Shown here in pieces: positions 7,360 to 50,552 of a stretch of 64,000 nt of DNA. The notes under the pieces are model-generated. The model saw nothing but the letters and a program-made list of their open reading frames with translations. It made no database searches and was not told where the DNA came from. A program made the position numbers and the translations under genes. Each line of letters opens with the position of its first letter. Position 1 is the first letter of the stretch. Origin of the DNA: Tubiluchus corallicola (taxonomy: Eukaryota; Animalia; Priapulida); assembly GCA_030141605.1 (NCBI GenBank), contig JAQGDQ010000272.1:62001-126000 (forward strand), given 5' to 3'.

Positions 7360-7703
7360 ATGTTGGCTTCAATACATCGTCAAACTCGTACTTGCATCAT
7401 CTACTGGATTTTGCTACGGATGTGGTCAGAAAGTCTAGTCCTGTCACTCGACCCAAGAACTTTGAGTGGCGCTGGCGCTTCCTTTCCAAATAAGGTGTAC
7501 CAGACTTGGGTGAAGATTTACCAGTCAGAGAGGGAAAAGTGGTTGTACTTGACCACATATTACTTAGCAGTTGGAAGTGGTACAGGGAAGGATTGGATTA
7601 AGAACAACAGCAGCCTCATTGATTATGCAGGAAGTGACAGCTTGCTCTCAGAGAGTGATTACCAGGAAAATCCGGATTTAGAAATGTTTCCTAGTCTAAT
7701 AGG
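7360..7703 (+). CDS. Copy A coding exon 1: signal peptide plus start of PstS-like domain
   Basis: Acceptor tttcAG at 7316-7317, ATG 7360, hydrophobic CIIYWILL, then TLSGAGASFPNKVYQTW..AVGSGTG..IDYAGSD..MFPSLIG; donor GTAAGT at 7704. Confidence 0.9.
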
Positions 7704-10700
7704 GTAAGTGGAATGATCCTACGGGAAGACTTTGTTTAAATAATAGTCGGTAGGTTGATAAGTGTAGTCTGTAACTTGGGGTGACTTCGCTTTTACATTA
7801 TTTTTGTTGTTGATCTTCACCGTCATTCATTTCCACTTCTGTTGACAAAGCAATCTTTATAGAGTGTTTGATGGTACTGCCCGATTGTTTCAACAACTGT
7901 CATTAAATCACAATATTTTTGCAAATATGGATGCCATATTAAAATGTGGACTTATCACAACATTCTACCAATATTTTTTATCAATATATGTAAACCATGT
8001 GTTTCCAATAGTGGACGGTGCTTGTGGGATGTTGCTCTTGCAGTCACCGTTGTCGCTATCGTCTCGAAGCTACTACTGTCAATGCCAACAAAACCAACGG
8101 TTGTGCCTCGCCTTGTTACATTAATTCACGTCACAGATTCATAAATTATATTGCCACCAATTATTTTGATTTGAAACCAGCCTTACGTTGTTCATCAAAC
8201 CACTTTAATGGTAGATGCTGTCAGAACTCTTATCATTAGTTCATAGGCACTGATAGGTCGGTCATGGTACCCGTTTTTCTGTTGCTCCTCATTACCACCC
8301 TGGACATTTCAAGATGCAGATCAGACAATGTTTCCTCGGACCCCTTTATCTGTGGAATTCTTTATCACAATTCGGTTTCTGAATTAACTACAACTCATTC
8401 ACACTCGAGAAGAGTATTCCCAAGTATTCTGTTTTTTTTGGACGTGCATTCATATTACCAAATTTCTACACAGCCCACTTATCCTGAGTGGTCGCTGGCT
8501 TTGTTTTGGCGACTAGAAGCACAGCAGCAACAACCACAACGACAACAGCAGTAGCAACGATAGCATTAACGACAGTAGGAGCAGCAACACACAAAGATAG
8601 TAAAAGTATGCGACTATAATCCCTACTGCCCAGGGAGCACACAAATTTGGTCACAATCTTGTTAGGATCTTGACAAAAATACGTTTAGAAAATATTGTCA
8701 CTATGGTGCCTTATAGGATATTTTTGTCAAATATAGGATATATACAATAATATTGGTACAACATCACACAAACACGGTTTACACATATTGATAAGAAATA
8801 TTGGTACAATGTTGTGGCGAGTCCATATTTCCGTATAGTATCCATATTTGCAAAAAAATTTCTGACAACATTGGTACAATATTGTCGCGCTGCCTTGGTG
8901 GTTTTATCATTTAAAATAGTTGTTGAAACAGCAATGGCATATAAAGTTAATCGAGCAGTACTATCAACACTTCAGATGCAGAAGCAGAAGTAGCAGCAGT
9001 AGCAGGACGAGCAGCAGCAGAAGCAGTAGCAGTAGAGGGACCACCAGCAGTAGAAGCAGCAGAGAAGCAACAGCAGTAGAGGGACCAGTAACAGCAGCAG
9101 AAATAGCAGCAACAGTAGCAGGACCAGCAGCAGAAGCAGCTACAGTAGCAGGACCAGCAGCAGCAGTAGTAGGACTAGCAACAGCAGAAGCAGCAACAAA
9201 AGCAGAACCAGCAGCAGTAGCAACAGAACAAACAGCACCAGCAGCAACAGCAGCGGCAATGTTGCAGCTAGCTAGAATAGCATTTAACAGCAGCGATGCT
9301 ACAAGGACAGAGGCAGTAGCAAAAGAGCAACAGTGCCAGCAACTGCAGCAGCATATTAGCAACTATACCAATAAAGCAACCTTTATGCTAATCACTCTGT
9401 TATGTTAGCGTATTTGTACTTTGCACCAATAATTATTGCAAAACGTTTGACAGATTTCGCCAAAGTGTATCAGTCACAAAGAATCATTATAACATTAATA
9501 TACGTAAATGACAAGTTTGCATGTAGGCGGATGTCTATAATAAATACTTCAATGTCGACAGGAAAATCTGCACACGTAATTGCTCTTAGAGCTCTCAAAA
9601 TCCTCACAGAATTTTGCTTCAAGTAAGCACAACGATCAAGTGTGCCATCCGTTCTGTCAAAACTGCATGTTTTCCTAATTAAAAATTTAGCACAACTGGC
9701 ACACAGGAGTACCGCAGGGAACGCACTACGCCCTATCTTATTTACTTTACTAGTATTCGCGAAGCAAAATGTAAACGTTAAAATAAAGACCAAGCCTTCT
9801 GTAAAGTCAGGCTTATTTCAATGTTCGCGAAAAATGTTAAAAGAATTTAGTAATAAAAGTGCGATAAGCGCCTCGTGTCATTAGTAAAATCACTTTAAAA
9901 TCGCGATCATTTCACTTTTTGGGCGCTCCAATTTTAAACGCCCGTTCTTCCGCCAATGACAGCATTCATCGGTTGAAGAAAAGCAGTGCACTGCCTGTTT
10001 CCATCAAAAGTACGATGAGTTTTTACAAAAAATTAGAGAGGCAATCCAATTTGCGAATTTTTGCATGAAAATAAGGTAAGCTATAGAAGTTTGAAATAGT
10101 TTAAGCAGGGCGCACTTACGGAAAGCCACGATACGCTTACAAAAAGTCGCGAAATCCATCAGTTTTATCGTCAATTTCTAGAGAATGGGCTGTCAAGATT
10201 TCTATGCAGCGATAGTATAAATCAACTTTGTTTTATAAACAGTTTTGTGCAAATTTCGTGTTATATTTTTCTTAGTTTAAGTGATAACAATAAAATAAAC
10301 CCAGCATGCTAAATGACTTGTCTTTTTCTTCAATTTAAATAAAATGCACTCTGTAAATCGTGTTCCTCTGACAACGACAGGGCCCTTTTATAATATTCTG
10401 AGATAAGACACCAATTCGGCCACGGTGCATCAGCCATCCATTCTCAACAAGGGCAGTGCGGCAAAAACTGTTACAGCCCAGAAACAGTTACCATGACGGT
10501 CACCTATAAATTTATTGACAGGCTCAGCATTGCTTAAGTTCTGTCGTTCAGCACATACCATTGACTACTCGGTTGTTTTCAGTTTATCCAGGTTAACAGC
10601 ATCTCATCCTGGCATATGGGGTCCTCCTTGAATTAATTTCAGATTTCTGGATCGAACTCAAAAGCATGCTGGTTTTCCTAATTCCGAAGTGGCCAACACG

Positions 10701-13700
10701 TTATGTTTTTAATTAATTTGTGAAGCAGGAGTACCAATCTGTAGTGTCTTGTGTCTAACACTGAAAATAGAGTTGTGCTGTTTATCTTTGCTGTGAGACG
10801 CATTTTAAAATAGACTAGAGCATGCAGTATTTCATGCTAAAGAGTAGCGAAATAATAAGACAGTATTTCAAAATCATTTGCCTAAATGTGCGTCAGTGCT
10901 TTTTGAAATGACATCTGTGACTATTAATCTTTTAATTTACAAAGAAGGCGTGAGAATCTGACGTCTTCCAGATTATGGGACACCTTAGTAACCATCTGAT
11001 TCCCAAGAGTACCCCGCATGTCAGAAGGAGATAATCGAAAAGAATGTGTAATTAACCTAACAAGTGAGTGTGTGCTGAATGACAGAAGTTAGGTAACATC
11101 GATTCTGTCAATAAATTGATGAGCGACTGCGCAGGAAAACTGTTTTCTGGGTCTTAAGCTGTTTCTTCTGCCGTGCTAATAAATAAATGTTAAACAAATA
11201 TTTTGTAGCGAATCCGGATTACAGCGCGGATCTGTCTCAGGATGTATAGAGCGGCATACAAGTTATGAAATACTACAGCAGGCGAGAAAAGTAAAAAGAT
11301 CCTGAATACGAATGTAAAATAAACTTTAATGCATAACCAGTAGCTCCATGACGTGTGAACAGACTTCAGACTTTGTATAAAAATTAGCAAGGCTACAGCA
11401 TTCACCTTTACAGACAGTTGATTATAAATCCATTTCTCTGTGGAAGCAGATCAATGATCCACTTGTGAATGCGGTGTAGCGCAATCTATCGAGATTGTCC
11501 CAAAGAAAAACTGTACAGTATTTTTTTAAACAGAGCAGAAATCAGTCTTTGCACATGCAAACGTTGAAGCTCAATTCAATGAATGCGTAGTTTGTGCAGT
11601 TGGTTGTGCAGAGTTGGTGGTTCTTGTGCTTGTGTTTCTTCCATCAGATTTATAGTTCTCCTACTACCCGCTATATGGCAAGTTAGGTATCAGTCTCTCC
11701 ACTTTATTTCTTTGTTCTGTTTTCCTTTAATTTGTTTAAAATCTTTTCATGGTTAGTTTAGGCCATGTAATATTTAAATCACTTTCCAGTTAAATCTTCA
11801 GCGTTATTTAATTCAGTTTCGTTTAATTGTGGTTATGTGGAAATCATTATTAGGCTGCTCCGCCTCCGTACCTGCAGGCCCGAACCACCCCCGGGTGGCG
11901 AGGAGCCACCAGCAGTTCAGTGGTTAGTGTTACGAAGTTTAGTTCAGTTCAGTGTTTATGTTAAATAAGTAAATAAATAAAGCGATGGTAAATAAATGTT
12001 TCTTTGTCTTTTGTCTTGCTGCCTGCAGTTATTTACCTGTTTGGGGGTGGATGGCTGAGACGCTTTATTTAATGTCTTATAATCTGTATTAAATGGCCCC
12101 GCTAGATACCAGATCCTGATTTGCAGAGTGTATCGTATTTAGATGAACGTTCAGATTTTCGTTTGCTAATATTAGAAAAGTAAATAAAATGGGACATAAT
12201 GCATTCCCCTGCAGTACTCCACCATACATGCTGTGCTAAAACTTGATTAGGAGAACCAGCGTGAAACATGTTACCTACTGCCTCATCGGTCGACTCATAA
12301 ATTATGTCCTACTGTAGGTAACATATTCCTTTTAATAATGAATTTTGTTTTCTCAGGGCGGTTGTGGTAGTTTTCAATCTGGGTACTCGTGTTCCAGCTC
12401 TGAACATGACTCGCGAAGGCCTAGTTGGTATTTACAATGGAACAATCAAGTGGTGGAATCATTCTGCATTGCAAGCAGCAAATCCTCAGATAACTCTACC
12501 TTTCAGAAGAATTAAGGTAGATACAACAATGGTAAAATCATGGGAAAAAATTCTGAGTGAGAGATGAAAGGACTCATAACTCGTATAAGTCGATGGAGAA
12601 ATCGAATTCTCAAGAGAAAAACAACTGCCAATACCCACTTAAGCAAATACGTGCCCATATATTCCAACACTGTCATCTGCAACGTATCAATCATAACATG
12701 GTCATGATCATGCAATTCTACCTAATAAAATGTAATATATATAAGTTAATATTTAGATCCAGCAAACCCCATTGTGAAATCCATTTCTAAACATTAATTT
12801 ACAGATCATGTAGTACATTGCCAAATGACAGAAAAACTAAGGTTATGTTACAACAACATAATTCATTCTGTCACTAAAGCCTGTGGGTGGCAATTGGAGA
12901 AATGTTTGCACCAACACATAACAACATGCTGTTTACTATTTAGAAACTGAGTTGTTTGCTTCTCACAATGTGGATTTGTGGACGCCAATATTTAGTTTTT
13001 GTATATTATATTTTTATTAGGTAGAATTGCGTGATCATGACTATGTCACCATTGAAACGTTGCAGATGACTGTGTTGGAATAAAGGATCATGTCCTTGTT
13101 TAAGTCTGTGCTGGTAATTGTTTTTATCTTAATAACTAGTGTAAATTATGTGCCATAGTGTAACGTACAGTTAGCACAGTGTGTCGGTTTTCTAATTTAT
13201 GTTTCATACAGTCATGCACAATTAAGATGGCTATCTGCAAGGCCTTTTCAAAAGTGGCAGGTGTAGCCTAAAGTATGATGGTAGTATGGTAACACTAATC
13301 CACGCATAAAAATTTTCGACTGTGCCCTTTGGAGACGTGTGGAAAACGAGCTAACCTTGTAAAAAAACCCTTACGGATAAAAATTAGCTATAAAAATTAA
13401 ATCTAATGGTAGAAAACATTCTCATCTATATTCTTGTAAAATCATATCAACATTTTACACAGGTGATAGCTCGAAAAGACGTGTCAGGTACCACAGAGAT
13501 ATTCACGAGTGCACTGAGTGCGTTCAGTCCTGAATGGAATGCCACCTATGGTACCTTCAATGACGGCATTGAGGACGATTGGACAATGAAATGGCCAAAT
13601 GACACTATTGAATTTGCTGGACAAAGGAGTATTGGAGTATCAGGGTTGGTCTTATCCATCGAGAACACTGTGGCTTATGTGTCGCACGCTGATGCTATTG

Positions 13701-15383
13701 AGGTATATTATATTCAAATATGTTTATAGTTGAGTAACTTCACATTATTGTATCAAGTGCTTGTTTTTATCTTTTGCTCGATTGTGCATAATAACATCTG
13801 AATACCTGCGACATAAAGATATATATAATGCACCTATCGGTGGACAATAGGTAGCTTGCTGTGTGCGCTGCTACGAGCCAAAGATAAAAGTTTTTATACG
13901 GACCTTAAAACCAGAGATTTCATTGGGAAAAATACGCGTAAGTGTCAGCTATAAACTCTTGTTAAGTGTTTCATTTTACCTTTTTTCTTTTCTTTTTTCA
14001 TAATTTTTTAGGTAATACATGCAGTAAATTATGAATCCTTGTTGTCATGGACGGCGTCACACTGGTGTCAGAAGTGGGATTCGAACCCACGCCAGGAAAC
14101 CAGACTGCGATGTCGTGTGATGCCGTCTATGATAACAAGGACGCGTTGGGTCGAAATGCTAACCAAGGAATTAAACCAAAAATTACTGAATCACGACTGA
14201 CTTAATAACAGCATCCAAGAAAAGAAAACAAAATGAAACCCGAAGCCGAACATAGCCCAGAACGCACTGCCCTCGAGTGTACGAGAACAGGTTACACACT
14301 CGAGAAAATTGGCCTAGAAAACTGAACTCTGATTGGCCCCCGCATTTTACATTCAGTACACTACATTTTCATGAAGCGTGTGGTTTCCGAGACCGTTTAA
14401 TCCTGCGACCCGCCACATTATATATATACATAAGTATTTATATACCATGTTACCTTATAAGGTTATATACATTAATAAGCAAAGGTTACAACAACATTAC
14501 ACAGTTTTCCAAGCAAGAATATCTCGAAATAGAACCGGAACTTACTCCTAGTTGTGTGTCCTGGTGGAAATAAGAAGAAAAAAGTACTAAACACCCCCTC
14601 TGAGACCGCCATGCAATGCTTCACAAACGTTTCTTGTTTCGTCAAAATTTGTGAAAAAAGGCCGGTGATAATGTTCCCATTTTGAGACCCTATACTCGCC
14701 TTTCTTCACAAAGTTTCGTGGAAATCCGTTAGATAGTTTTTGCAAAATAAGCTTACTGCCATAACAGACAAAAACAGCCAAATAAACAGACAAACAAACT
14801 GTGCCGAAGCATAATTTCTTTGGTAACAGCCAAATAAACAGACAAACAAACTGTGCTGAAGCATAATTTCTTTGGTAGAGGTAAAAATAACTAAAATAAT
14901 TATCCCCACTGTAACCCTAATCCTAAAAACATATTTTATTAAGCGTGACATTGTTTCCTATGCCTTTTCACCTACTTTTCGTTTGTGCTATTTTTTCCTG
15001 TGCCATTTTTACCTACGTTTCCATTTGTGTCATTTTTACCTACTTTTCCATTTGTAGCATTTTTCCTGTGTCATTTTTACCTACACTCAACTCCCAATAT
15101 TTCTAGTATATTATATAGAAATTATAAAATTTCACGATACGATTATGTTAACTCCAACGTATGAACACACTAAAGGTTATTACTAATTTGTTATTGTCAG
15201 TATAATAAGAATAACATTCATTTTACTTCCTTTTTGTACAAATGTCTTTGCTATTTCTGATATAATGAATCAAATTTACTTCAAATGTAACCTCCTAATT
15301 ACTGATTCTAATACGTGTGGGATGAACCGAGCCAAGGTTAATAGATTTGGCACAATTAGCTATATATAATCGGCCGAATACTG

Positions 15384-15443
<60 letters not shown>

Positions 15444-21400: not shown

Positions 21401-24400
21401 GTCCAAAAAATTGGGTGCTATTTTTTTCAAGCCTAATGGGGGCACCATTTTTAATTGGGTTCAGATCAGAGAAATGCCTCACTATTCACTACAAACACCT
21501 GAAAACTCACGGAAAAGGAGCAACCCATTTTAGGGTATTTCACTGAACCGGAAGTAGGGCATGCCCAAATATTTCACTGTACAAAATCTGAAAATTACTG
21601 GAATGTGGTATTTTAGAATGCTGAATACGGATATGAACTTTTCTGGGGCGGAGGGTTCTACTTGCACAGGCCGACAACTTTATAGGGACCAAAAATGGGG
21701 CACATCGTAGTATTTAGCACAAAATCCTAAGTATTGCAAGAAAGGGGGTTTTTGCGACACACTGAATGGAAATCTACTTTTGGTTTCACTGAACGACAGC
21801 ATCTAGTTGCTCTATCGTCTGTCTGACTCCGCTAGAATTGCTTATAGTTTCAAAGCCAGTTCCATTATTCACTCTCTTGTTATTTGCATACTCAGCTGTT
21901 TGACATAATGTGCTTGATGCTAAAGTAGCTGCCTAACCCATGTGTCACCATGGCCCGACTACAGTAAAACAGACATTGCATGGAGAAGTTGAGATAATAA
22001 ATTTACTCATCTTTACAGTAGACCGATTATATTACTAACGTTATTGTTTAATTTGCTGTAATAGTACGCTTGAAGTGCATACAATAAATTGCAGAATACA
22101 GTCATATGGAATTAAGATTTTTCGTCCAGTTATTTATTTATTTATTCTCCGCAAATTTAACTATTATAATAACTCAAAAGCCTAGCAAGCTAAGGTCACT
22201 AAGCTCACAGGGTTGGTAGCCCTTGTCGGCGGATGAACAACAGTATGGTGACCACTGACCACCGGTCAAAGGTGGAAAGGCAGTGGGCGTTGGTCAGTTT
22301 TCCTTTAGGTCGCATCTCTTCCTAGGGCCTTCGGTTTTTTCCATTTTTTACAAGTATTTGGGTACTGTAGGGTAGATGTGCACCTGGGGTCTTAAAAAGT
22401 TGACAAGCTTCAAACGCCCGAGAGATGGGCCAAAATACAAAATTTGGGGTCCCCCATTTGGTGACCTTTTATATGCTGAGGGCTAGGGACAAAAAGCTTA
22501 CAGGGCACACTCTCCGGGCAAAGTTATTTGTGTGTACATGTGACACAAATTATCGGGTTAAAGGTCACGGAACGAGGGAGTCTTCATTTATTTTTCTTCA
22601 TGATTCATCTACTCCCGTAGTTTTTGAGCTAGGGCCACAATATTTGGTATGTTGCTAGGTGGGGTCGCACTCTAGGTGGGGGGCTACAAAATATGGGACA
22701 TGCACGTATACGGAAATTTTCCGCTAGGGCAAAAACCGAAAAATAGGGGTCGCAAACAGAAATGTATTGAGCAATGATACCTTGTAGCACATCAAATGAA
22801 AGGTTTCGATGAGGCGAATCAAATGGTGTAGGTTACAATGAGAATCGTTAACATGTGGCCGAATTGGGGGCAAAATAGGGGTCGAGAAGACATTTGCCTT
22901 TCTAGTTAAACGTAGCTGGCTTGTAGTACGTCGAATGAAAAGTCTCAATGAGACAAACTAAATGGTAGTAATTACCCAGAGATTAGTTAATCTCTAACTG
23001 CAGCAAAAACTGGAAAAAGGGTGTCAAGAAAAAAATGCATCAAGTGTCGAGCAGTAGTACCATGTTACATATCATATGAAAGGTCTCGATGAGACGAATC
23101 GAATGACATATGATACAATGAGAGTGGTTAACTTGTGAACCCTCTAGAAACAAGGAGTTCAGGAGACAAATATCTTCTAGTGTCAACCGAAACTAACTTG
23201 TATCAAATGAAAAATCACAATGAGGCAAACTAAATGATATAAGTTATGCCGAGATTGGCTGACCTTTGACACCGGCGGGTGACGGGCTGAACAGTAAAAT
23301 GCTGAAGTTTCATTGTGAAATGCACTTTCCATGTATTCAAGTAAGGTGAATTCAATAAAAAATAAGCACTTTAAAAAGGCTGCCATCTCTTCATTTTTAA
23401 GGCTCAATTTTATAACTATTGTTTGCAAAATCTTCAGTTTCTGATCACGTCAGAAACATTGTCAGCTAGTTTATCACTTGAAATTGAAACTGCTCACGCA
23501 AACGTTGACGTAAATTTATTGCTAATTTTTCAGAGTGGCCTTCGAATAGCTCCAATTGAATCACGAACTGGCGAAATGGTCTTTCCGACACCAGAGTCAG
23601 TACGTCAAGCGGCGGTAGATTATAAGGACGCGTTCACGTCGCATTTTACAGCCCAGATTGTCGATCCGCCCAGTAGCAATGCTTACCCCATCAGCGGTAA
23701 AATGTGTAACATAAAAGTGGTTTAAATACTAGACGTTTAACAGCATTTTTAAAATGTCAACGTAACTAATTTGAGTGATACATTTTGATTTTGTAGGGAG
23801 CCGTTGCAATAAGAAGTATCTTAAATATGTAGTTGATTTGTAATTAGGTAACACACCTAGTAACATGACTAACATGCTATACGACATTTTTAACTCAGCA
23901 TAAGAAAGACAGAGAGACGGAGAGAAGAAGAGAAAAAGAAAAAGTAGAAGAGGGACAGAAAGAAAAAAGAGGATCGGGAGTGGATAAACCGAGAACAAAG
24001 AGAAAAGAGTGAAGAATATTAGGAGATAAAACAGAAAGGGGATAGAAAGAAAGTAAACATAATATAAGAACAGAAGGAGGGAGTCTAAGGGAAAGAGAGA
24101 GAAAGACAGCATGCACAAGATTACAAGACTAAAAGTACGTGTACTTGAACTTGAATCAGAAAAATCGAAAACTCATCTTTAATAACCAAATAATTTAGTT
24201 ACTAACCGCAATCAGGTTATAGAAAAACTGTTAGATTGGATACAATTATAGTCCAACTGCAACCTATATTTTATTCTTCCAGGTTACACTTACATCATTG
24301 TCCACATGTCCACCATGCAAAACTGTGACTCGGCAAAAGAGCTGGTCAGGTACTGTGATTGGTTCCTGCACGACGAAAGTGCCAGTAGAACTGCAGATCA

Positions 24401-27400
24401 GTTTGGGCTCATATCAGTTGGACCACAGATCAGCAGCATCATCGTTTCAAAAGTTCTTCGACATCTGACATGTCACGGGATGAACATATGGGCAGAGGTG
24501 GAAAAGGAAAAGCAGTGGGAAAGAAAAGCCGAGCAAAAATGGCGGCTTCCAGTATATATAGTGGCACCATTTGTTAGCTTGGTTCTGATTGGTCTAATCA
24601 CGTATTCGATGTACAGTTACGTGAAGACAAATAGAGCCTTGATGCGAAATGAATGGAAGATAAATGCAGATGAAATCGAAATTAGTAATCGGACAAAGTC
24701 AGCTTATTCCGGAAGCATAAAGTCCATTTTTAGCCGAGGAAAACTATCGGGACGTGATAGCTTGGCTAACTATTGCAACAACGATTTTACAGTTGCCAAT
24801 TACCTAGAAAACAGAGTTTTTCTAAGAGCCGTTAAATCAAAGACCGTGCCACATTTTTCAAGAGAAACAAAAAGGTTACTTCTGTGGATGAAAGACAGTG
24901 TACGCCATCCAAATGTACTGATATTTTACGGAGTGGCAGAAATTAAAGGTGAATGGAAATTTGTGTCCGATTTCTGTTCAAAGGGCAGTTTGGTCGATGT
25001 TCTTCAGGCTGACAAGTACTCCTTGGACAATTCATTTAAATTTGCTTTGGCGATCAATGTTGCTAATGGGTTGTTATACTTGCACAAATTGGGGATAATT
25101 CATGGTCATCTCTGTTCTGCTGTTTGTTTTGTTGACACACAATGGAACGTGAAAATCACAGATTGGGAATTCAACAAACTGAACAGTTATCAAAAGAGGA
25201 AGAAGAAATGCCAAGTGTTTCCAGAAAACCCATCTGCTGCTACCGAGTCATTCACAAATGAAATAAACAGGGAAAAGTTTTTCTTTTCACCCCAAAAGCT
25301 GAAAAGTGACCCTGACAAATATGCACCTACCAAAGTGGATGATATTTACAGTTACAGTATTATAACATATGAGATATTTACAAGGCAAGATGCGTATGAA
25401 GATATCCTAGAAACTATGACAGAACAAGAAGTTTTATATTCCATTGCAAAGAAAAAACTTCGTCCTCGAAAAACCAAGGATGTACCGGATACAGTATTTT
25501 CTGTGTTGGAAATGTCTTGGAAGGATGAGCCATCAGAACGCCCTAATGCCTCCCAATTGCACAAGAAAATGAAACTTGCCAATCCTTCTAAAAGAAGCTT
25601 AATGGATAGCATGATGCGGGCTGTAGAGTCTTACACACTGGAGCTAGAAGATCGAGTTAATGAAAGAACAGCTGAATTAGCGCAGCTCACAAGCAGCATG
25701 GAACAACTTCTAGGACGCATGCTTCCTCCAGACATAGCAGCTAAGTTAGCCAGAAATGAAGAAGTGCAGCCGGAATATTTTGAATGTGCTACTGTGTTTT
25801 TCTCGGACATTGTTGGCTTTACATCATTATCTGCAGCTTCAACACCATTGGAGGTTGTTAACCTGTTAAACGTATTATATACATTTTTTGATTCAGTGAT
25901 AGAAAACCATGATGTGTACAAAGTAGAAACAATAGGCGATGCTTACATGGTCATATCGGGTGCCCCAAAAAGAAATGGCAAGTCCCACATTGTTCACGTG
26001 GCAAATATGGCATTAGACATTGTTAATGGTATACAGGATTTCTGCATCCCTCATTTGCCTGATGAAAGACTTTTAATTAGGTGCGGCATTGCCACTGGAG
26101 CTGTTATGGCAGGTGTTGTTGGGCTGAAGATGCCTAGATATTGCATATTCGGAGATACGGTTAACACAGCCTCGCGAATGGAATCAACTTCCTCACCACA
26201 GAAAATTCAGGTAAATTATTTTTCTCTTTTCAATCTTTATCGTTTACTAAAATCCTTTATCTCGTTATAAGATTCTTGCTATATAAGTGCAAACCACACG
26301 CCACCATGACATTTTGTTTGCCGAAAAAGAGATTCCTGTTTGTGTTCATAAACTGGCATTGCAAATGCTGTGTGTGATTAACTATTTGATGGCACATTCG
26401 CTGTTTCAAATAACTTCTCCGGCATTTGAAATTTTATAAAGAAGATATGAAATGAACGTGCACTTAAAATATTTCATTATTTAAGAACAGAAAGTCGACA
26501 ATTTGGTCGTGATGCTGTGATTTATACCACTTCCCACAGTCTTGCTCTATGCATACCTAGATGCAAATAGTTGCTTATAAGTTAATTGTGTTCCCTCGGG
26601 CTTTTTATCGTGGAATTTTCTACTAGGAAAGTGTTGCAATCGGCTCACGAATGCCAACGTATGATTCTAGTTATGGCAACGAATTATACGTGCTGCCATT
26701 TCCATTTTTGATTCGCAATGCTTTTTTTTACAGCTCGTATTTCTTGACAATTCTTGATGACCTCGTATTTAGTCTGATCAATGTAGTGAATTCAAATCTT
26801 TGATAAATTTTATGTTAGATTTATTGGTTATATTATGACAGTTTTTCAACATACTGTAAATTGATTTGGAGAAGTCAGTGAATGACCAGGTGTTGAGTAA
26901 TGATAACAAAGAAAACAGATAGTCTGTACCTTCCTGGTTAAAAGCCATGTTACAGTATTCTATCATTATGACTTGTCTATCAGGGAGAACAAATTTGCCA
27001 AAAGAGTTAAAAAGCTGCAAAGCACTTGAACAGAAATTAACGAAATAACATTTTAAACTTGGGCGTTAACACTACGCGAAATGCAGATTATTATTGTTGT
27101 TACACTTTTGCAGATAACTGATTTTGCCAATGACATGCTGATAATGCAAGATGGACGCTATTTTACAGAATACAGGGGAGAGGTGGATGTGAAGGTAAAC
27201 TTGTGGATGTAACATCTTTCACTCCATGTTGTACCACATAAAAACATTTTGCTCTCTTTTCAATAACGACCATGCAACGACCACCTTTTCTCTTTTCTTC
27301 TTTCTTCTGTTTCTTCAATTTTCAGTGTGTTTTTTTTTGTTCAAGCCTCCCATGAAGAGAGTAAATAAACCGTTGTGTCTAGGTTTAAGTTAGATTAGAA

Positions 27401-27737
27401 GGCGCTGAGAGGTGTAGAAACAAGGAATAGTTTATGGACATTAGTTAAATCTATTAATAAACGCATTAAGCTTGTAATAAATAGTTCCATTGTTTTACAT
27501 TACTGTTTACAAAGTCTGTCATCTCGAGGTTCACCTGAAGGGACCTTTCACTTGTAAAGTTCACTGCACAAAGCTTAGCATGCCTGTACATTATTGTTAG
27601 AAAGTTACTCTTGAAACTTTGTCTTATAGAACAAATTAAGGTCAAATTGTGTATTTTATATAGCAATTTCTTTGTAGGGAAAAGGGAAGATGAAGACGTA
27701 CTGGTTGGTATGTAAACTACTCGCCCCCGTGGTCTAG
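7360..27737 (+). CDS. Receptor guanylyl cyclase with PstS-like phosphate-binding ectodomain, copy A (spliced, 991 aa)
   Basis: Exons 7360-7703, 12357-12516, 13463-13702, 23534-23696, 24283-26210, 27114-27194, 27678-27737. All introns are GT..AG with compatible phases (2,0,0,1,0,0), giving a 2976-nt open frame. Motifs: TLSGAGASFP, GSGTG, DYAGSD, RKDVSGTT, AYPISG (PstS-like); TM LPVYIVAPFVSLVLIGLITYSMYSYV; kinase-like HPNV..HGHL; FSDIVGFT, YKVETIGDAYM, PRYCIFGDTVNTASRMES, KGKGKMKTYWL (guanylyl cyclase). Confidence 0.92.
8975..9360. repeat. Degenerate (AGC/AGT)n trinucleotide low-complexity tract in copy A intron 1
   Basis: Runs of agcagc/agtagc; a shorter counterpart lies at about 38150-38310 in copy B. 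Confidence 0.85.
12357..12516 (+). CDS. Copy A coding exon 2 (PstS-like)
   Basis: tctcAG acceptor; AVVVVFNLG..LVGIYNGTIKWWNHSALQAANPQITLPFRRIK matches the PstS IYLGKIKKWDD..LNPGLKLP pattern; donor at 12517. Confidence 0.9.
12605..13135. mobile_element. Foldback/MITE-like element with about 130-bp imperfect terminal inverted repeats, copy A intron 2
   Basis: TTCCAACACTGTCATCTGCAACGT..GTCATGATCATGCAATTCTACCTAATAAAA (about 12660-12730) is the reverse complement of 13012-13081; absent from copy B intron 2. Confidence 0.7.
13463..13702 (+). CDS. Copy A coding exon 3 (PstS-like, RxDxSGT motif)
   Basis: cacAG acceptor; VIARKDVSGTTEIFTSALSAFSPEW..VAYVSHADAIE; donor at 13703. Confidence 0.9.
14063..14110 (-). 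pseudogene. Reverse-transcribed 3' half of a tRNA-Leu including CCA (extended primer-binding-site-like sequence)
   Basis: Minus strand TCGCAGTCTGGTTTCCTGGCGTGGGTTCGAATCCCACTTCTGACACCA: anticodon-stem 3' strand, long variable arm, T arm, acceptor strand and CCA; no 5' half. Confidence 0.8.
14111..14417 (-). mobile_element. Possible LTR fragment abutting the tRNA copy
   Basis: Minus strand begins TGTGGCG and ends CACGACA, contains CCAAT; its end resembles 14036-14062; no target-site duplication seen. Confidence 0.35.
14700..15085 (-). mobile_element. Non-autonomous DNA-transposon-like repeat (other copies about 30490-30910 and 31803-32920)
   Basis: Shared AAAGTTTCGTGGAAATC..AGTTTTTGC, ACAAAC runs, TAACCCTAA, and reiterated TGTGCCATTTTT subterminal motifs. 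Confidence 0.7.
15388..15439. repeat. (AT)n microsatellite
   Basis: Perfect dinucleotide run. Confidence 0.95.
16528..16699. repeat. Three tandem copies of a 56-58 bp unit
   Basis: CAGAGAGAAGTTGCGCAACAAGTTGCGAGAGAAGTCTCTA..TCTGAACGCGCCAT at 16528, 16586, 16644; inverted partial copy at about 16458-16482. Confidence 0.9.
18983..19105. repeat. Long imperfect palindrome (arms about 53 bp, 15-nt loop)
   Basis: ATACTTTTTTAACTAT..TGTGCATTTTGACT..TTTTTGAACCGG pairs with CCGGTTCAAAAAA..AGTCAAAATGCACA..ATAGTTAAAAAAGTAT. Confidence 0.85.
22740..23265. repeat. Diverged tandem array of about 140-bp units with a conserved 36-bp core
   Basis: Core RTCRWATGAAARRT..RATGAGRCRAAY..AATG at 22791, 22930, 23071, 23202. 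Confidence 0.75.
23534..23696 (+). CDS. Copy A coding exon 4 (PstS-like)
   Basis: tttcAG acceptor; SGLRIAPIESRTGEMVFPTPESVRQAA..NAYPIS; donor at 23697. Confidence 0.88.
24283..26210 (+). CDS. Copy A coding exon 5: end of PstS-like domain, TM, kinase-homology domain, coiled coil, most of the guanylyl cyclase
   Basis: Contained in ORF 24306..26270; ttccAG acceptor at 24281-24282, donor GTAAAT at 26211; canonical GC motifs. Confidence 0.95.
27114..27194 (+). CDS. Copy A coding exon 6 (cyclase C-terminal part)
   Basis: ttgcAG acceptor; ITDFANDMLIMQDGRYFTEYRGEVDVK; donor at 27195. Confidence 0.88.
27678..27737 (+). CDS. Copy A terminal coding exon
   Basis: tgtAG acceptor; GKGKMKTYWLVCKLLAPVV-stop. 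The TTG|GTATGT inside it could be an alternative donor. Confidence 0.82.
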   Translation, partial: GKGKMKTYWLVCKLLAPVV

Positions 27738-37545: not shown

Positions 37546-37895
37546 ATGTTGGCATCAGCACATCATCAAAGTCGTATCTGCATCATCTACTGGATTTTGT
37601 TATATTTACGGATGTGGTCAGAAAGTCGAGCCCTGTCACTCGAACCACGAACGTTGAGCGGTGCTGGTGCTTCCTATCCAAATAATGTATACCAGGCTTG
37701 GGTGAAGATTTACCAGTCAGAGAGGGAAAAGTGGTTGTACTTGACTTCATATTACTTAGCAGTTGGAAGTGGTACAGGGAAGGATTGGATTAAGAACGGC
37801 AGCAGCCTTATTGATTATGCAGGAAGTGACAGCTTGCTCTCAGAGAGTGATTACCACGAGAATCCGGATTTACAGATGTTTCCTAGCCTAATTGG
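37546..37895 (+). CDS. Copy B coding exon 1
   Basis: Acceptor at 37505-37506; MLASAHHQSRICIIYWILLYL..TLSGAGASYP..GSGTG..DYAGSD; donor GTAAGT at 37896. Confidence 0.9.
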
Positions 37896-40800: not shown

Positions 40801-43800
40801 AAAATCTGGTTTAAATAAAGAACAGAAAACCAACAAGTAAAACCCGGCGTCACACCCCATAAACAAGGATGAGATAATCAAAAAGAGTGTGTGATTAACC
40901 TGAATTAATTAAAAACAATTGAGTTGATAGTTAGAAATTAAACAATGCCCATCCTGTCAATAATTTTTTTGATAGGTAACAGTCCCAGGATAACTGTTTC
41001 TAGGTCGTACCTGTTTCTCCCGTCGTACTGCATCTGGTTATACGACTTTCTGAGACGCCTAGTTTAGCGTCTTATCTCAGAAAATTAATTTGTATACTAA
41101 GGGGAGAGGATACTAGACACTAGAATGAGATTTACAGAGTGTATCGTATGTGGGTGAACTTTTACATTTTCCTTTGTTAATTTTAGAAACGTAAATAAAA
41201 TTTGGCATAGTGCATCCCCTACAGTACTCCAGCATTGGTCTGTGACTGTGTGATAAAACTTGATTAGGATAACCCGTCTCAAACGTTCTGCCCACTGCAT
41301 TACCAACTGACGCACACATTGTATAAAATATCTGGCAGACCCTACTGTAGATAATCTGTTCGATAATCTATTCTTTTTGATGACGATTTTGTTTTTTCAG
41401 GGCGGTTGTAGTGGTTTTTAATCTGGGTACTCATGTTCGGGCTTTGAACGTGACTCGCGAAGGCCTAGTTGGTATTTACAATGGTACAATCAAGTGGTGG
41501 AATCATTCTGCATTGCAAGCAGCAAATTCTCAGATAATACTGCCTTTCAGAAGAATTAAGGTAAATACAACGCTCATGCACAGTGTGTGGTCAATGCCAG
41601 TATGATGGAAAAGAAATTTTAGAGTAGGGAGACTAAATGGCAGAGGAAGTCGTATTTATATAACTTGTATAAATTATGTGCCGTAGTGTAACGTACAATT
41701 AGCACAATATACCAGTTTTCTAGTTTATGTTTCATACAGTCATGCACAATTAAGATGGCTATCTGCAAGGCCTTTTCAAAAGTGGCATAGCCTAAAGTAT
41801 GATGGTAGTATGGTAACACTAACACGGATAAAAATTAGCTATAAAAATTAAATCTAATGGTAGAAAACATTCTCATCTATATTCTTATAAAATCACATCA
41901 ACATTTTACACAGGTGATAGCTCGAAAAGACGTGTCAGGTACCACAGAGATATTCACGAGTGCACTGAGTGCGTTCAGTCCTGAATGGAATGCCACCTAC
42001 GGTACCTTCAATGACGGAATTGAGGACGATTGGACAATGAAATGGCCAAATGACACTATTGAATATGCTGGACAAAGGAGTATTGGAGTATCAGGGTTGG
42101 TCTTGTCCATCGAGAACACTGTGGCTTATGTGTCGCACGCTGATGCTATTGAGGTATATTATATTCAAAGACGTTTATAGTTGAGTAACTTCACATTATT
42201 GTATCAAGAACTAGTTTCTTTTGCTCAGTTGTGAATAGTAACATCTGAGTACCTGCAATGTTATTGTGTGCCATCTAAAAGCATATAATGAATCAGTCTG
42301 TGGACAACAGTTCGCTGTGGACGTTGCTGCGAGTCAAACATAGGCGTTTCAAACGGGCCTGAAAATATGACTTTGCATTATAATACTGTACTTTCATTTT
42401 CAACCCTTCAGGTAATTATATAGAGGCTGCTAAAAGTACTGTTTTTAAGTCTCAACGGACATGAAACACGGCTCTGCCCTTTTTAATAAAAATGATCGCT
42501 ACAAGTAATTTACGGACACGAATCTACTGACAGCTTTTTATATATTAAATATACAGCTACATGCATCGCACATTTCGACAAATACAGACAAATTCGGACA
42601 TATGGGTGTTAGACATTTATCTGCCAAGGGTGTTAGGCGAGCTTGGACATTGAGTACTGGACGCACAAAATCTTGTACAGAATGCTCATTAGACACAGTA
42701 AAATTTCGGCATACGAAAGTTTGAACGCAATTTAGTTTAGGAAGTTTCAACTGCTTGCCACTATCGACAAGTGCTTAATGGACGGTGTCACATTCAATTA
42801 ATACTAAAGAAGTAGTAAGTAAATGCAGAAGTTAGAAATGTGAAATGTGTTTGACACCCAGTTTCATCTATTTATTTGAATGAAGACAGACGAAGTTATT
42901 TCAAATACCTTAAACACGATGTTATTTATCTAGGTGGGTAAAGATAGCTCCTATTAAGGGTGTACCTAGAACAAATTGCAATAGAATTTCTCTATTCAGA
43001 TTCTGTTAGAATATGGTCTCAAATATTCACAACAAAAGAATCCGCCAAAATTGGTTTTGATACTTTTGAGATATAAGCATAAATCCAAGATGGCGCCTGC
43101 TGGTGCCAAAAATCGGGTGTTTCTCCTAAACCATAGTGTCTATACCTGATACCTTTGTTTTCGGGCTCTTCTTTAAGGTCAAAACCTTATTCTGCCCATA
43201 CTTTGTATCACATATAAACAAAGGAGAATTGCGTTTGCATAAAAATGAGGTGGCTTTGCACTGCTGTTTACATGTATGTGTGTCTAAGATGATGTATTTT
43301 TCCTTTAAAACAGTTTCTGCTCTTAGCATCTACGGCATCATATGTTCCATATGTTTTTTTACTCTCCTCGAGAAAGAGTTTAATTTCAAGTTCAGTCTGC
43401 TTTGCTTTTTGAAAAGTTTTTGTGTGCTCTTTGGTGAAGAAATTTTCCGCAGCAATTTTATCTATCTTGTTTATTATACGATACGCTTGTGTCAGGTCTC
43501 CCCTAATTCTCCTGTAGTTAAGTGATGGCCATGTAGGAACTCCAATCTTGTTGTTTAGTTTAGATCTTTTGTGTATCCTAATAGTTTTGATGCTCTGCGC
43601 TGTACTGCTTCCATTTTTCTCCTATCGTGGAGTTCAGTTGGGCAACAAACCACACATTTGCGTCTTACAATAGACTTGTGTAGCTAGGATAGCATCTTTT
43701 TGTCTAGATAAGTAAAGCTTCTCCGTCTCTTTGGTTAGCTTTCTTTGTCACTTCTGATATATGTCGACTTGGTTTTGGTGTCGTGTCAAATATAACTTCT

Positions 43801-46800
43801 AGGTCTTTTTCCTCTTCCCCTTCCTCTAGAACGCTTATCCTTCCATTTTTCATCATGTGGTAATTAAATTTTGGGTTCCTATTTCCATAATGAATTACTT
43901 TGCATTTTGACACATTGAAGTTTAGTTGCCAGTCTTCAGCCCGTTTACACAAATTTAGCAAGTCATTTTGTGGTTTTGCATGATCACCTTCATTTTCTTT
44001 TTGTCTGCATATTTTTGTATCATCCACAAAAATTGTCACCGTGCTTTCACTCACTACATCTGGTAGGTCATTAATGAAAATGATGAAAAGGATGGGTCCC
44101 AAGACGCTCCCTTGTGGTATACCACTGATGACATTTGCTTTGTTGCTAAGACAACCGCTAACTTTTCTTGTTGTACACGTCCCTTCAAGAAGCTTTCCAA
44201 CCATTTAAGTAGAGGGTCTTTAATTCCATATGCGTGAAGTTTTCTTAGCAGACGATCATGTGAAACTGAGTCAAAAGATTTTTGAAATCTAAGTAAAGAG
44301 TATCGATTGCTCCACCACTGTCTATGGTATCTGTCCATTCTTCTAGCACTTCTAGTAGCTGTAGGATACAGGATCTTTCCTTTCTGAATCCATATTGTTC
44401 GATGCTTAGTAAATTATTTTCCCCTAAATATTTCATCAGGTCGTCCGTATAATAGATTCTAGTAGTTTACAAATTACTGAAGTCAGACATACAGGACAGT
44501 AGTTTTCTACTTCTGATCTTATACCCTTTTTATGCATTGGAGCAATGATAGCTTCTTTCCGTTGTTTAGGTAGCTGGCTGGAGTTTACTGACTTCTGGAA
44601 GATTTTTGCGATGGGTGTTGCTACTGTACTTCTAGTTTCTTTTAAAACTTTAGAATGCACTCCATCTTTACCTGGTGATTTTCTGATATTTGGTTGTTCT
44701 ATTTTTCTTTTGACTTTCTCAACTGTGATCTTTGTTGTATGGTGTCTGTGTCCATTGCTCCGATCTTCAAGATATAGAATGCTTGTCACATCTTCAATGG
44801 TGAAAACTTCTGAAAAGAAGTTGTTTAAGACTTTTGCTTTCTCTTGGCGTCTGTGCTTGTTAATGCCCCATCTGCCTTTTTAGATCAGGTATTCCGTGTT
44901 TTACTTTCATTTTGCTTCTCACATATCTCCAGTATTGTTTGGGATTCTTTTCTAGTTTCTTGTAATGTTTCTTTCAAATTCTCGTTTTGCCCATTTGCTC
45001 GCATTGGTCGCTTTGTTCGTAACTTTTTTGTATGCTTCATAGGCGTTGCGTTGTTTTGTATGTTTTACTTTCATGAAGGAGTTTCTTTTGTGTTTCACCA
45101 TCTATAATATGTATTTGTCCATCCATTTTGGTTTGTGTAATTTAGCGCTGTAATATGTTTCCTTTTGGTATGTTTTTCTCCATGCTTCTAAGTAATGTTT
45201 CCTAGAAGTAATTGTATGCTTCTTGCGCAATTGAGTCTTGAGATTTTCATCCCAATCAGCGTTTCTAGAGGCATACTGGAGTAGTCGCCTTTATAATACT
45301 TATAGCGTGCTATAAAGTGGTTGTTTCTCGGTCTAGTAACAGTGAAATTTAAAGAGGAGTAAGCTGTGATCGCTGAATCCAAGGGGGAAACAATTTCCAC
45401 ATCCGAAACCATAGCTTCTTCGTTGGTTAAATTTAGGTCTAGAATATTAGGTTCTTGGTTCACCCTGCATCTAGTGAGTTGGTCTACGTGTTGGAACAAA
45501 AAAAGGCTTCTAGACATCTAATAAACTTTGAACTAGAGTGGTGTTCTCCTCTGGTTTGATGACATGTTTTCTTATTCTATCTCTGGTAACTCGATTTTTT
45601 ATCTACAGTGTTCTTTATTAGCCATACTATTTTTTCGTTATCATCTGCTATGTTACAAGGACTTCTGTAAATATTTCTTACCAGAAGTGTGTTAGTATTT
45701 TTAGCTTAATTTGACACCATAATTTCTAAATGAAAAATATTTATTATTAACTGATAGGAACTGACAACTAGCGCGATGGACTTAAGTACACGCTAAGACA
45801 GCTACATGAATACGGTTTACGACACAATCTTAAAGGTATCGTAAGACAATGAACCTAAGTGCATAAATTTACTATGCGTACATTAATTTGTCCCCTGGAT
45901 GCTAAAAACAGCTACTTAGTCCAAGTCATCCGTAACGCCTAATTGCAGTGAAACAGACGCAGTATGGAAATGCTCACATAACAAATTTCCTCATTGTTAC
46001 AGTAAAGCGGTTATATTACTAACTAACGTTATAGTTATTTATTGTAAAATTTCTTGCAAAACTACGCTTCAAGTATATACGTGAAATCGCAAAAGATAAT
46101 CATATGTAATTTGCGCTCCCAATTCTTTGTAAAGTGTGCAACTTGCAAGCGTTGACTTAAATTTATTGCTAATTTTTCAGAGTGGCCTTCGATTAGCCGC
46201 AGTTGAATCACGATCTGGTGAAATGGTCTTTCCGACAGCAGAGTCAGTACGTAAAGCGGCGGTAGATTATAAGGACGCTTTCACACCACATTTTACAGCT
46301 CAGATTGTGAATCCGCCCAGTGGCAATGCTTACCCCATCAGCGGTAAAATGTGTAATATAAAAGTGGTTTAAATACTAGAACTTAAAAATGTCAAAGTCT
46401 CTAATTCGAGTGATACTTTTTGATTTAGTAATAAGGAGCTGTCGTAATAAGAAGCACCCTGAATATGAAATAGATTTGTAATTGCCATTTAACATACTTA
46501 GCTCACTAATATAATGACTAACATGACATGCTATGCAATATTTTCAACTCTTCAACTCAGCATAAAAAACAGAGAAATAGAGAGAAGAAAACAAAAAGAA
46601 AGAAGTAGAAGAGGGTAAAAACAAAAAAGAGAGAAAGAAAGGAGACAAAAGAAAAAAGGGATAGAGAGAAAGTGGAAAAGGGGAAGGGGAACAGAGGGAG
46701 AGAGAGAAAGAGATGAATGGGAGGAAAAGAGAGAAACAGTGTGCACAAGATTCATCGTCAATAGCTAAGGTATGTGTACTTAAAATTGAATCAGAAAAAT

Positions 46801-49800
46801 CGAAATCTGATCTTTAATGACCAAATAATTTAGTTATTAACCACAATCAGGTTATAGAAAAAGTCTTAAATAAAAAATACAATTATAGTCCAACTGCAAC
46901 ATTTATTTTATTCTTCCAGGTTACACTTACATCATTGTCCACATGTCCACCATGCAGAACTGTGACTCTGCAAAAGAGCTGGTCAGGTACTGTGACTGGT
47001 TCCTGCATGACGAAAGCGCCAGTAGGACTGCAGTGCAGTTTGGGCTCATCCCAGTTGGACCACAGATCAGCAGCATCATCATTTCAAAGGTTCTTCGACA
47101 TTTGACATGTCACGGGATGAACATATGGGCAGAGGTGGAAAAGGAAAAGCAGTGGGAAAGAAAAGCCGAACAAAAATGGCGGCTTCCAGTATATATAGTG
47201 GCACCATTTGTTAGCTTGGTTCTGATTGGTCTAGTCACGTATTCGATGTACAGTTACGTGAAGACAAATAGAGCCTTGATGCGAAATGAATGGAAGATAA
47301 ATGCAGATGAAATCGAAATTAGTAATCGGACAAAGTCAGCTTATTCCGGAAGCATAAAGTCCATTTTTAGCCGAGGAAAACTATCAGAACGTGATAGCTT
47401 GGCTAACTATTGCAACAACGATTTTACAGTTGCCAATTACCTAGACAACAGAGTTTTTCTAAGAGCCGTTAAATCAAAGACCGTGCCACATTTTACAAGA
47501 GAAACAAAGAGGTTACTTCTGTGGATGAAAGACAGTGTACGCCATCCAAATGTACTGACATTTTACGGAGTGACAGAAATTAAAGGTGAATGGAAATTTG
47601 TGTCCGATTTCTGCTCAAAGGGCAGGTTGGTTGATGTTCTTCAGGCTGACAAGTACTCCTTGGACAATTCATTTAAATTTGCTTTGGCGATCAATGTTGC
47701 TAATGGGTTGTTATACTTGCACAAATCGGGGATAATTCATGGTCATCTCTGTTCTGCTGTTTGTTTTGTTGACACACAATGGAACGTGAAAATCACAGAT
47801 TGGGAATTCAACAAACTGAGCAGTTATCAAAAGAGGAAAAAGAAAAGCCAAGTGTTTCCAGACAAACCATCTGCTGCTACCGAGTCATTCACAAATGAAA
47901 TAAACAGGGAAAGGTTTTTCTTTTCACCCCAAAAGCTGAAAAGTGACTCTGGCAAATATGCACCTACCAAAGCAGATGATATTTACAGTTACAGTATTAT
48001 AACATATGAGATATTTACAAGGCAAGATGCTTATATAAAAGATATCCTAGAAAGCATGATAGAACAAGATGTTTTATATTCCATTGCAAAGAAAAAACTC
48101 CGTCCTCGAAAAACCAAGGATGTACCAGATACAGTATTTTCTGTGTTGGAAATGTCTTGGAAAGATGAGCCATCAGAACGCCCTAATGCCTCCCAATTGC
48201 ACAAGAAAATGAAACTTGCCAATCCTTCTAAAAGAGGCTTGATGGATAGCATGATAGAGTCCTACACACTAGAGCTAGAAGATCGAGTTAATGAAAGAAC
48301 AGCTGAATTAGCGCAGCTCACAAGCAGTATGGAACAACTTCTAGGACGCATGCTTCCTCCAGACATAGCAGCTAAGTTAGCCAGAAATGAAGAAGTGCAG
48401 CCGGAATATTTTGAATGTGCTACTGTGTTTTTCTCAGACATTGTTGGTTTTACAGCATTGTCTGCAGCTTCAACACCATTAGAGGTTGTTAACCTGTTAA
48501 ACGTACTATATACATCTTTTGATTCAGTGATAGAAAACCATGATGTGTACAAAGTAGAAACAATAGGCGATGCTTACATGGTCATATCGGGTGCCCCAAA
48601 AAGAAATGGCAAGTCCCACGTTGTTCACGTGGCAAATATGGCATTAGACATTGTTAATGGTATACAAGATTTCTGCATCCCTCACTTGCCTGATGAAAGA
48701 CTTTTAATTAGGTGCGGCATTGCCACTGGAGCTGTTATGGCAGGAGTTGTTGGGCTGAAGATGCCTAGATATTGTATATTCGGAGATACAGTTAATACAG
48801 CCTCGCGAATGGAATCAACTTCTTCACCACAGAAAATTCAGGTAAATTATTTTTTCTCTTTTTAATCTTTATCGTTTACTAAAAGCTTTTATCTCATTAT
48901 AAGATTCTTGCCATGAAACTGCTCTAGTCGGGTCCGTACAAGTTTCAAAGTGCAAAGCACACGCCACCATGACATTTTGTGTAACGAAAAAAAGATTTCT
49001 GTTCATAAACCGGCATTGCAAATGCTGTATGATTAACTATTTGATGGCACATTCACTGTTTTAATCAACTTCACCGGCATTTGAAATTTTATAAAGAACA
49101 TATGGAATGAACGTGCACTTAAAATATTTCATTATTTAAGAACAGAAAGTCGACAATTTGGTCGTGATGCTGTGATTTATACCACTTCCCACAGTCTTTC
49201 TCTAGGCATACCTAGATGTAAATAGTTGCTTATAAGTTAATTGTTTTCCCTCGGGCTTTTTATCGTGGAATTTTCTACTAGGAAAGTGTTGCAATCGGCT
49301 CACGAATGCCAACGTATGATTCTAATTATGGCAACGAATTATACTTGCACCACCATTTGCTTTATTAGCGTTGAAATTTTGATTTGAATTGCTTCTTTTA
49401 TAAGTAACTCTAGCTCATGTTATACCAGCACTGCCAATAACTTATTATATGGATGAATTATGTGTGATGAATGAGATTTTACAAGTTATTTAGTCTGATC
49501 AATGTAGTGAATTCACATCTTTGACAAATTTTATGTTAGATTTATTGGTTATATTATGACAGTTTTTCAACATACCGATCTGTTCAGAATTCACTATGTG
49601 CTGTATCATTTTAAAAGTTTTGTAAATTAATTAGGAGAAGTCAGTGAATAATTAGGTGTTGATTAATGATAGCTAAGAAAACAGATAGTCTGTACCTTCC
49701 TGATTAAAAGCCATGTTACTGTATTCTTTTTATCAATTATGACTTGTCTATCAGAAAGAACAAATTTGACAAAAGAGTTAAAAAGCTGCAAAGCACTTGA

Positions 49801-50530: not shown

Positions 50531-50552
50531 CACGCCAAAGCCACATGTAAGA

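Follow-up and report, generated by a model that had tools for sequence, protein, structure and literature searches.

Receptor guanylyl cyclases (rGCs) such as GC-A/NPR1 and GC-C (PDB 9bcv, 8fx4) combine a single membrane helix with a kinase-homology domain, a signalling helix and a class III cyclase in which a Glu and a Cys specify guanine. The kinase-homology domain and the signalling helix are needed for rGC activity and for dimer formation (PMC1592074). Ligands of the ectodomain can switch rGCs on or off, and in Caenorhabditis elegans these include inorganic ions, to which responses are directed by the ectodomains (PMC8045692). Here we describe two tandem genes, copy A and copy B, in a stretch of 64,000 nucleotides from the priapulid Tubiluchus corallicola (contig JAQGDQ010000272.1, positions 62,001 to 126,000 of the forward strand; the window). 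Both would encode rGCs with an ectodomain of the type of PstS, the bacterial phosphate-binding protein.

The predicted proteins share the above features with GC-A and GC-C, but, unlike in these, most of their intracellular part lies on a single 1.9-kb exon. They also differ from GC-A by their ectodomain, which is PstS-type (PBP_like_2) where GC-A has an ANF_receptor domain. With E. coli PstS (PDB 1ixh/2abh; TIGR00975) they have in common the fold, as seen in models of homologues, all contact positions and the Asp-type pocket; in contrast to it, they are membrane-anchored and fused to a cyclase, have Ser in place of T10, and possess six sequons for N-glycosylation as well as a conserved pair of cysteines (C317/C366), the identity being about 30%. 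A parallel is found in the gustatory GCY-1, -4, -14 and -22 of C. elegans, rGCs in which the response to inorganic ions depends on the ectodomain; yet these sense Cl-, Br-, I-, K+, Na+ and OH-, and the accessible text of PMC8045692 describes no PstS pocket for them. The same eukaryotic PstS lineage is represented by PBP_like_2 fusions in a chytrid class C G protein-coupled receptor (SPPG_06488, listed in PMC3251606) and in Endogone, Calcarisporiella, Pigoraptor, Chromosphaera, Thecamonas and Fabomonas, which, unlike the animal rGCs, have seven-transmembrane, kinase, TRP-like or other cyclase outputs. DING proteins, such as HPBP, also have a PstS-like fold with a conserved phosphate site (PMC7922408), but they are soluble, structurally farther (see below) and of disputed eukaryotic gene origin, whereas the window genes are chromosomal and contain introns.

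Results

Two tandem genes join a PstS-type ectodomain to a complete rGC module

The DNA of the window is eukaryotic in character, with a GC content of about 36% and few long reading frames, and its self-comparison revealed a duplicated block, at about 7.2-29.6 kb and 37.4-52.0 kb. Each block holds one predicted gene of seven exons, with GT-AG junctions and an open frame of 991 codons. The two proteins are 93% identical (928 of 994 alignment columns) and have the same order: a weak signal peptide, a PstS-like ectodomain (residues ~30-385), a membrane helix (~391-413), a kinase-homology domain and a guanylyl cyclase. A single strong hydrophobic segment was found, at ~391 (19 residues, mean 2.3), and the h-region of the signal peptide is weak, with 11-residue means of 1.65 in copy A and 2.58 in copy B. 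The ectodomain exons matched only PBP_like_2 and PstS models, and not an ANF_receptor-type ectodomain. Bacterial contamination was ruled out by the GT-AG introns and the animal rGC module.

On the intracellular side, Pfam identified PK_Tyr_Ser-Thr (E=9.7e-29) and guanylate cyclase (E=1.5e-53), and the alignment with GC-A is unbroken over residues 442-982 (E=1e-93). The kinase-homology domain has HGH and DWE in place of the HRD and DFG of active kinases. Both copies keep D811, E851, D855, R902, R921, C923, N930 and R934, as aligned with GC-A; among these, D811/D855 presumably form the metal-binding Asp pair, E851/C923 the Glu/Cys specificity pair and N930/R934 the Asn/Arg transition-state pair. 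The presence of a signal peptide (though weak), one membrane helix, a kinase-homology domain with signalling helix and the complete cyclase residues identifies both proteins as candidate rGCs.

All nine phosphate-pocket sites of PstS map onto both copies

A preliminary description of this DNA had claimed that the phosphate-ligand residues of PstS are retained in both paralogues, though the span that it gave, 7460-13510, covers copy A only, copy B being located at 37546-50530. The motifs that it named are present in copy A (GAGASF at 7468, GSGTG at 7573, AGSD at 7627 and RKDVSGT at 13472) as well as in copy B (GAGASY at 37660, GSGTG at 37765, AGSD at 37819 and RKDVSGT at 41923). Retention was borne out by a hidden Markov model alignment with E. 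coli PstS, in which all nine sites found a counterpart. In copy A, T10 corresponds to S41, F11 to F42, S38 to S73, D56 to D93, R135 to R172, D137 to D174, S139 to S176, G140 to G177 and T141 to T178; we assume that D137 pairs with R135 in E. coli PstS, PDB titles showing only that it was mutated. Copy B differs from copy A only at the backbone-contact site F11, which is Y44. The replacement of T10 by Ser, absent from the preliminary description, is seen in both copies and in 20 of the 21 family members covering this site. The E. coli contacts listed there (T10, F11, S38, D56, R135, S139, G140 and T141) agree with PMC6549937.

The eight contacts, including the selectivity Asp, are thus those of an Asp-type PstS, with T10 as Ser and, in copy B, F11 as Tyr. 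Asp-type pockets are highly selective for inorganic phosphate (Pi), which they favor by some five orders of magnitude, and they do not respond to sulfate, the anion with which it is compared here (PMC13614923). The spaced set of lobe-1 motifs occurred twice in the window versus a mean of 0 in 40 shuffles, and R-x-D-x-S-G-T/S also twice, versus 0.1 expected from shuffles.

The pocket is conserved across the animal family

Homologues were gathered by three word-based searches and one profile search (best 150 of 4,553 matches at 1e-30). Among the 193 proteins fetched, 99 PstS domains stood directly before an rGC-type kinase domain, and 89 were left after an 80% identity filter, eight proteins having been set aside by hand (P0056, P0114, P0136, P0143, P0154, P0173, P0174 and P0188). 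These 89 animal homologues average 37% identity to copy A; most records do not include exon 1, and the lobe-1 sites are covered by only 21-24 of them.

The mean frequency of the top residue was 0.94 in the pocket columns versus 0.52 in 338 other columns and 0.51 in the 123 non-pocket columns of S, T, D, R, G or F, and none of 100,000 random nine-column sets reached the conservation of the pocket. In lobe 1, T10 was Ser or Thr in 21/21, and F11, S38 and D56 were kept in 21/21, 24/24 and 23/24, respectively; the corresponding counts in lobe 2 were 83/83 for R135, 72/83 for D137, 77/83 for S139, 81/82 for G140 and 82/83 (Thr or Ser) for T141. All seven side-chain sites were kept in 17 of the 21 fully covered members. 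Two proteins have lost the pocket and still align to the PstS profile: Trichinella P0174, with an intact cyclase, reads Y-G-S-R-A across the five sites of lobe 2, and the leech (Helobdella) P0143 has Glu at D56 and Phe/Ala at D137/S139. Since a PstS domain is therefore able to lose its pocket, the retention elsewhere is meaningful. Outside the family, 52 of 72 fully covered PstS domains keep all seven sites and 5 keep four or fewer.

The preliminary description had further concluded, from the agreement of the two paralogues, that the pocket is still selected for a phosphate-like oxyanion. That argument had to be abandoned: with an ectodomain identity of 92.6% between copies A and B, the chance of all nine sites matching is about 0.50, which makes the pair weak evidence of selection. 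The conclusion itself probably holds, through the conservation in the family and the members that have lost the pocket.

The predicted fold is that of PstS

AlphaFold2 models of two homologues, Patella P0009 and Owenia P0019 (35% and 43% identical overall to copy A), were used to stand in for the window protein. In both, confidence was high along most of the ectodomain, with scores that were mostly 85-97 per block of ten residues (74 for one Owenia block). Structural alignment with E. coli PstS, the check proposed in the preliminary description, gave Z scores of 38.4-38.5 and root-mean-square deviations of 2.8-3.0, with 319/321 residues aligned (Foldseek was also run); DING proteins gave Z scores of 28-29 with the same models. 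The full two-lobed fold was thus recovered in the two homologues, and a common cleft for the contact residues is supported by this fold together with the alignment. The window ectodomains are accordingly predicted to have the full two-lobed PstS fold. In the Patella model, a long helix runs from the end of the PstS domain into the membrane helix.

The PstS domain groups with a eukaryotic lineage

The nearest named relative is a protein of Priapulus caudatus (XP_014672517, 49.6% identity over 885 residues), which groups with both copies at 100/99. Other named members come from molluscs, annelids, nemerteans, a tardigrade and Trichinella; no deuterostome, cnidarian, arthropod or vertebrate protein with this architecture was present among the named matches listed, most matches being unnamed. 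The animal ectodomains form a clade with a Shimodaira-Hasegawa approximate likelihood ratio support of 99 in a tree of 20 rows and support of 83/91 in a more careful tree of 10 rows; the degenerate Trichinella domain falls outside it in one tree. They sit among PstS fusions of Pigoraptor, Chromosphaera, fungi, Thecamonas, Fabomonas, Palpitomonas and Entosiphon, and a 97/91 branch separates 23 eukaryote-type from 22 bacterial-type rows. A recent animal-specific transfer from bacteria was rejected on account of this position among eukaryotic fusions. The closest relatives among the 14 bacterial loci sampled are PstS proteins of Chloroflexota (L002, L003 and L004; 35-37% identity), in a sample gathered with P0146 as query and hence biased toward its relatives. 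The PstS sensor domain is likely to be old in eukaryotes and to have been fused to the rGC module a single time, in the protostome stem or earlier. Forty-eight of the 99 family records have their start where intron 1 lies, and many of them read in from intron-like sequence. This pattern suggests that the first intron is shared and that, in numerous species, it is followed by a single second exon of great length.

Other domain arrangements were noted among the proteins fetched. P0056, outside the animal clade, carries a pair of intact PstS domains together with a membrane helix and the beginning of a kinase-homology segment of rGC type; it may represent a PstS-rGC that arose independently or earlier. 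In P0013 and P0135, PstS domain(s) directly precede an ANF_receptor domain, so that two classes of binding protein are found in one chain. The short PstS proteins P0146, P0152, P0166 and P0179 carry, as read by eye, a C-terminal Cys pair like C317/C366.

Of the 60 family members whose cyclase could be scored, 47 were classed as dead: among all 89, 10 are intact, 3 nearly intact, 47 scored as dead and 29 truncated, one of the 'dead' rows (P0082) being actually cut short at its end. The scorable named molluscs and nemerteans all have a dead cyclase, and Owenia and Priapulus an intact one. Most dead forms cluster in the tree of the intracellular part (FastTree support 1.0; 0.92 with the tardigrade).

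Copies A and B are likely to be true duplicates

The synonymous divergence (dS) between the copies was 0.12 overall and 0.19 in the ectodomain, with ratios of nonsynonymous to synonymous divergence (dN/dS) of 0.22 overall, 0.18 in the ectodomain and 0.12 in the cyclase. The two genes are thus likely to be recent duplicates under purifying selection. Their identity is uneven, 96.6-98.3% in exons 3, 5 and 7 and 90-92% in exons 1, 2 and 4, which may reflect patchy gene conversion.

We considered the possibility that there is no working pair, either because an assembly error has placed two haplotypes side by side or because the copies are silent. It would be compatible with the fact that splicing and start codons were deduced from sequence and with the unequal depth of A-type and B-type contigs in X1, a DNA run that contains both types and may come from the source sample. 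Among the contigs listed for X1 and for a further run, X2, no joint at a predicted intron was seen, an outcome that speaks neither for nor against expression. Against it stand the level of dS and introns that differ in length by kilobases; moreover, the B-type contigs of X1 are within ~0-3% of window copy B, far below the A-B divergence in most introns, and both frames are open with a dN/dS of 0.22. We regard this possibility as very improbable. The depth in X1 (window 7300-24500 and 37000-56900) was ~46-63 for most long copy-A-type contigs and ~8-29 for copy-B-type ones; extra A-like copies are possible, although this depth is not a copy number.

Gene structure and other features of the window

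All exons are on the plus strand. In copy A, exon 1 (7360..7703) encodes the signal peptide and the lobe-1 sites S41 (7480), F42 (7483), S73 (7576) and D93 (7636); alone, it matches E. coli PstS in the PDB (1ixh, E=1.1e-4) and, as a fragment under the cut-off, TIGR00975 (E=2.3e-9). Exons 2 (12357..12516; PBP_like_2, E=0.005), 3 (13463..13702; TIGR00975, E=7.1e-9) and 4 (23534..23696) continue the PstS domain, the intron before exon 2 being a phase-2 intron common to many homologues and exon 3 providing R172 (13472), D174, S176, G177 and T178. Exon 5 (24283..26210; 1928 bp), which gives the match to GC-A, holds the end of the PstS domain with C317/C366, the membrane helix, the kinase-homology domain, the signalling helix and most of the cyclase, continued by exon 6 (27114..27194) and completed by exon 7 (27678..27737) with the stop codon. 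Copy B is organized likewise, with S43, Y44, S75 and D95 in exon 1 (37546..37895), exon 2 at 41401..41560, R174, D176, S178, G179 and T180 in exon 3 (41914..42153), exon 4 at 46181..46343, the membrane helix, kinase-homology domain and cyclase in exon 5 (46920..48841), exon 6 at 49908..49988 and the stop codon in exon 7 (50471..50530).

A very short frame lies just before the main ATG of both copies (5 codons in A, at 7330-7347; 4 codons in B, before 37546), after a splice-acceptor-like site; it may be a regulatory upstream open reading frame, or the true 5' end may include a further exon. Intron 1 of copy A contains a CAG/GCA-rich low-complexity tract (8520-9400) that yields spurious long frames on both strands. 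Broken reverse-transcriptase frames, one of which matches a reverse-transcriptase model (E=1.5e-6), are found on the minus strand in intron 3 of copy B (43271-45517), and we read them as a retroelement resembling long interspersed nuclear elements. Pfam matches to zf_PCFS4, Tyr-DNA_phospho, COX14, NNH5 and TRIC were under the cut-off and were disregarded. No transporter-like frame that could be a pstCAB partner was noticed by eye among the window frames of at least 95 residues, and nothing therefore pointed to a role in a PstCAB importer.

Discussion

On balance, we lean toward the view that both genes encode single-pass rGCs with a PstS-type, phosphate-gated outer domain, such that extracellular Pi would change the output of cyclic GMP (cGMP). 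The architecture, the pocket residues, the cyclase residues and the purifying selection can be read from the sequences themselves. By analogy with PstS, binding of HPO4/H2PO4 would close the two-lobed cleft, and the Asp at E. coli position 56 would exclude sulfate. In a preformed dimer, this closure could move the helices in and next to the membrane, as well as the kinase-homology domain and signalling helix, and so switch the cyclase, the long helix seen in the Patella model carrying the movement; whether the switch would be on or off is not predictable.

Several points weigh against this view. The support for the fold comes from models of two homologues and not of the window protein, and the cleft from fold and alignment. 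With the TIGR00975 PstS model (cut-off 205), the Patella protein scored 210.6, but the Owenia protein fell just under, at 203.4, and the truncated Priapulus protein at 139.7, single window exons being fragments. Conservation figures are slightly high, as three of the proteins set aside (P0114, P0143 and P0174) are named animal members, two of them with degenerate pockets, and the G-S and S-G-T motifs also have a structural role. The pocket is equally kept in members with dead and intact cyclases (R135 in 45/45 versus 9/9), and in the family as a whole it is therefore not coupled to the output of cGMP. Finally, body fluids contain sub-millimolar to millimolar Pi. A site with the dissociation constant of E. 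coli A197C PstS, 0.03-0.07 μM (PMC6549937), would consequently always be full there. The receptor would then have to face outside water or be detuned, or else Pi would be only a co-ligand; if its affinity is near the bacterial values, its site of action is likely to face seawater or sediment pore water rather than body fluid.

This saturation is also what favors a structural or permissive role of permanently bound phosphate, with regulation by a peptide or a partner protein that binds to another part of the ectodomain. Peptides are ligands of classical rGCs, GC-A among them (PDB titles), and the animal family has conserved residues outside the pocket (V46, W50, R58, F200, E322, R325 and Y326, for instance). 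Yet the same pocket is intact in receptors of fungi, a filasterean, an ichthyosporean and other protists that have unrelated outputs (the 52 of 72 domains mentioned above), as fits a portable sensor module, and a fold that closes on a hinge would be needless for a constitutive ion; we consider such a co-ligand role unlikely, although it deserves more weight than the other alternatives.

The pocket might instead sense a related anion, i.e. phosphite, arsenate, a phosphomonoester or polyphosphate. Asp-type PstS1 also binds phosphite (PMC13614923) and E. coli PstS binds arsenate at ~3 μM (PMC6549937); furthermore, the family as a whole has Ser in place of T10 and varies in the columns that correspond to E. 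coli 176-178. However, the donors for four oxygens and the Asp acceptor are all kept, and beta-glycerophosphate is bound by a Ser-type, not an Asp-type, protein (PMC13614923), which leaves this reading rather improbable. Very improbable, too, is that the PstS domain is a mere scaffold whose residues persist for folding. Many core columns are indeed as conserved as the pocket (45 of 338 at 0.9 or above, a further point against phosphate gating), but the buried polar and charged sites (D, R and S) are near invariant, versus the 0.51 of comparable non-pocket columns, and the sites have been lost in the Trichinella and Helobdella members and in the 5 of 72 other domains.

The rGCs are a known class, and a PstS ectodomain on an rGC appears to be new as far as the literature searched goes; no description of such a family was found in this literature, which omits most subscription journals and supplements, and a gene-family table could list these genes. 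We give about an even chance to a broader scenario in which protostomes have possessed, since before the split of Ecdysozoa and Spiralia, a dedicated cell-surface phosphate receptor made of a PstS domain from unicellular ancestors and an rGC, the copies described here being complete and turning outside phosphate into cGMP, and most molluscan members signalling with a dead cyclase.

The phosphate sensors proposed in animals (PiT-1/2, FGFR1 and CaSR) are transporters, or receptors, that mainly serve other functions, and a 2025 review considers the mechanism of phosphate sensing in animals incompletely understood and calls for other sensors (PMC12256581). The relevance to mammals is indirect because a vertebrate member is absent among the named matches listed. 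The members with an intact cyclase make the family assayable, unlike the dead-cyclase members of molluscs. If our interpretation is correct, a purpose-built phosphate pocket with a built-in cGMP readout would be an example of a direct phosphate sensor in animals, with possible relevance to chemosensation in sediments and to the mineral balance of invertebrates.

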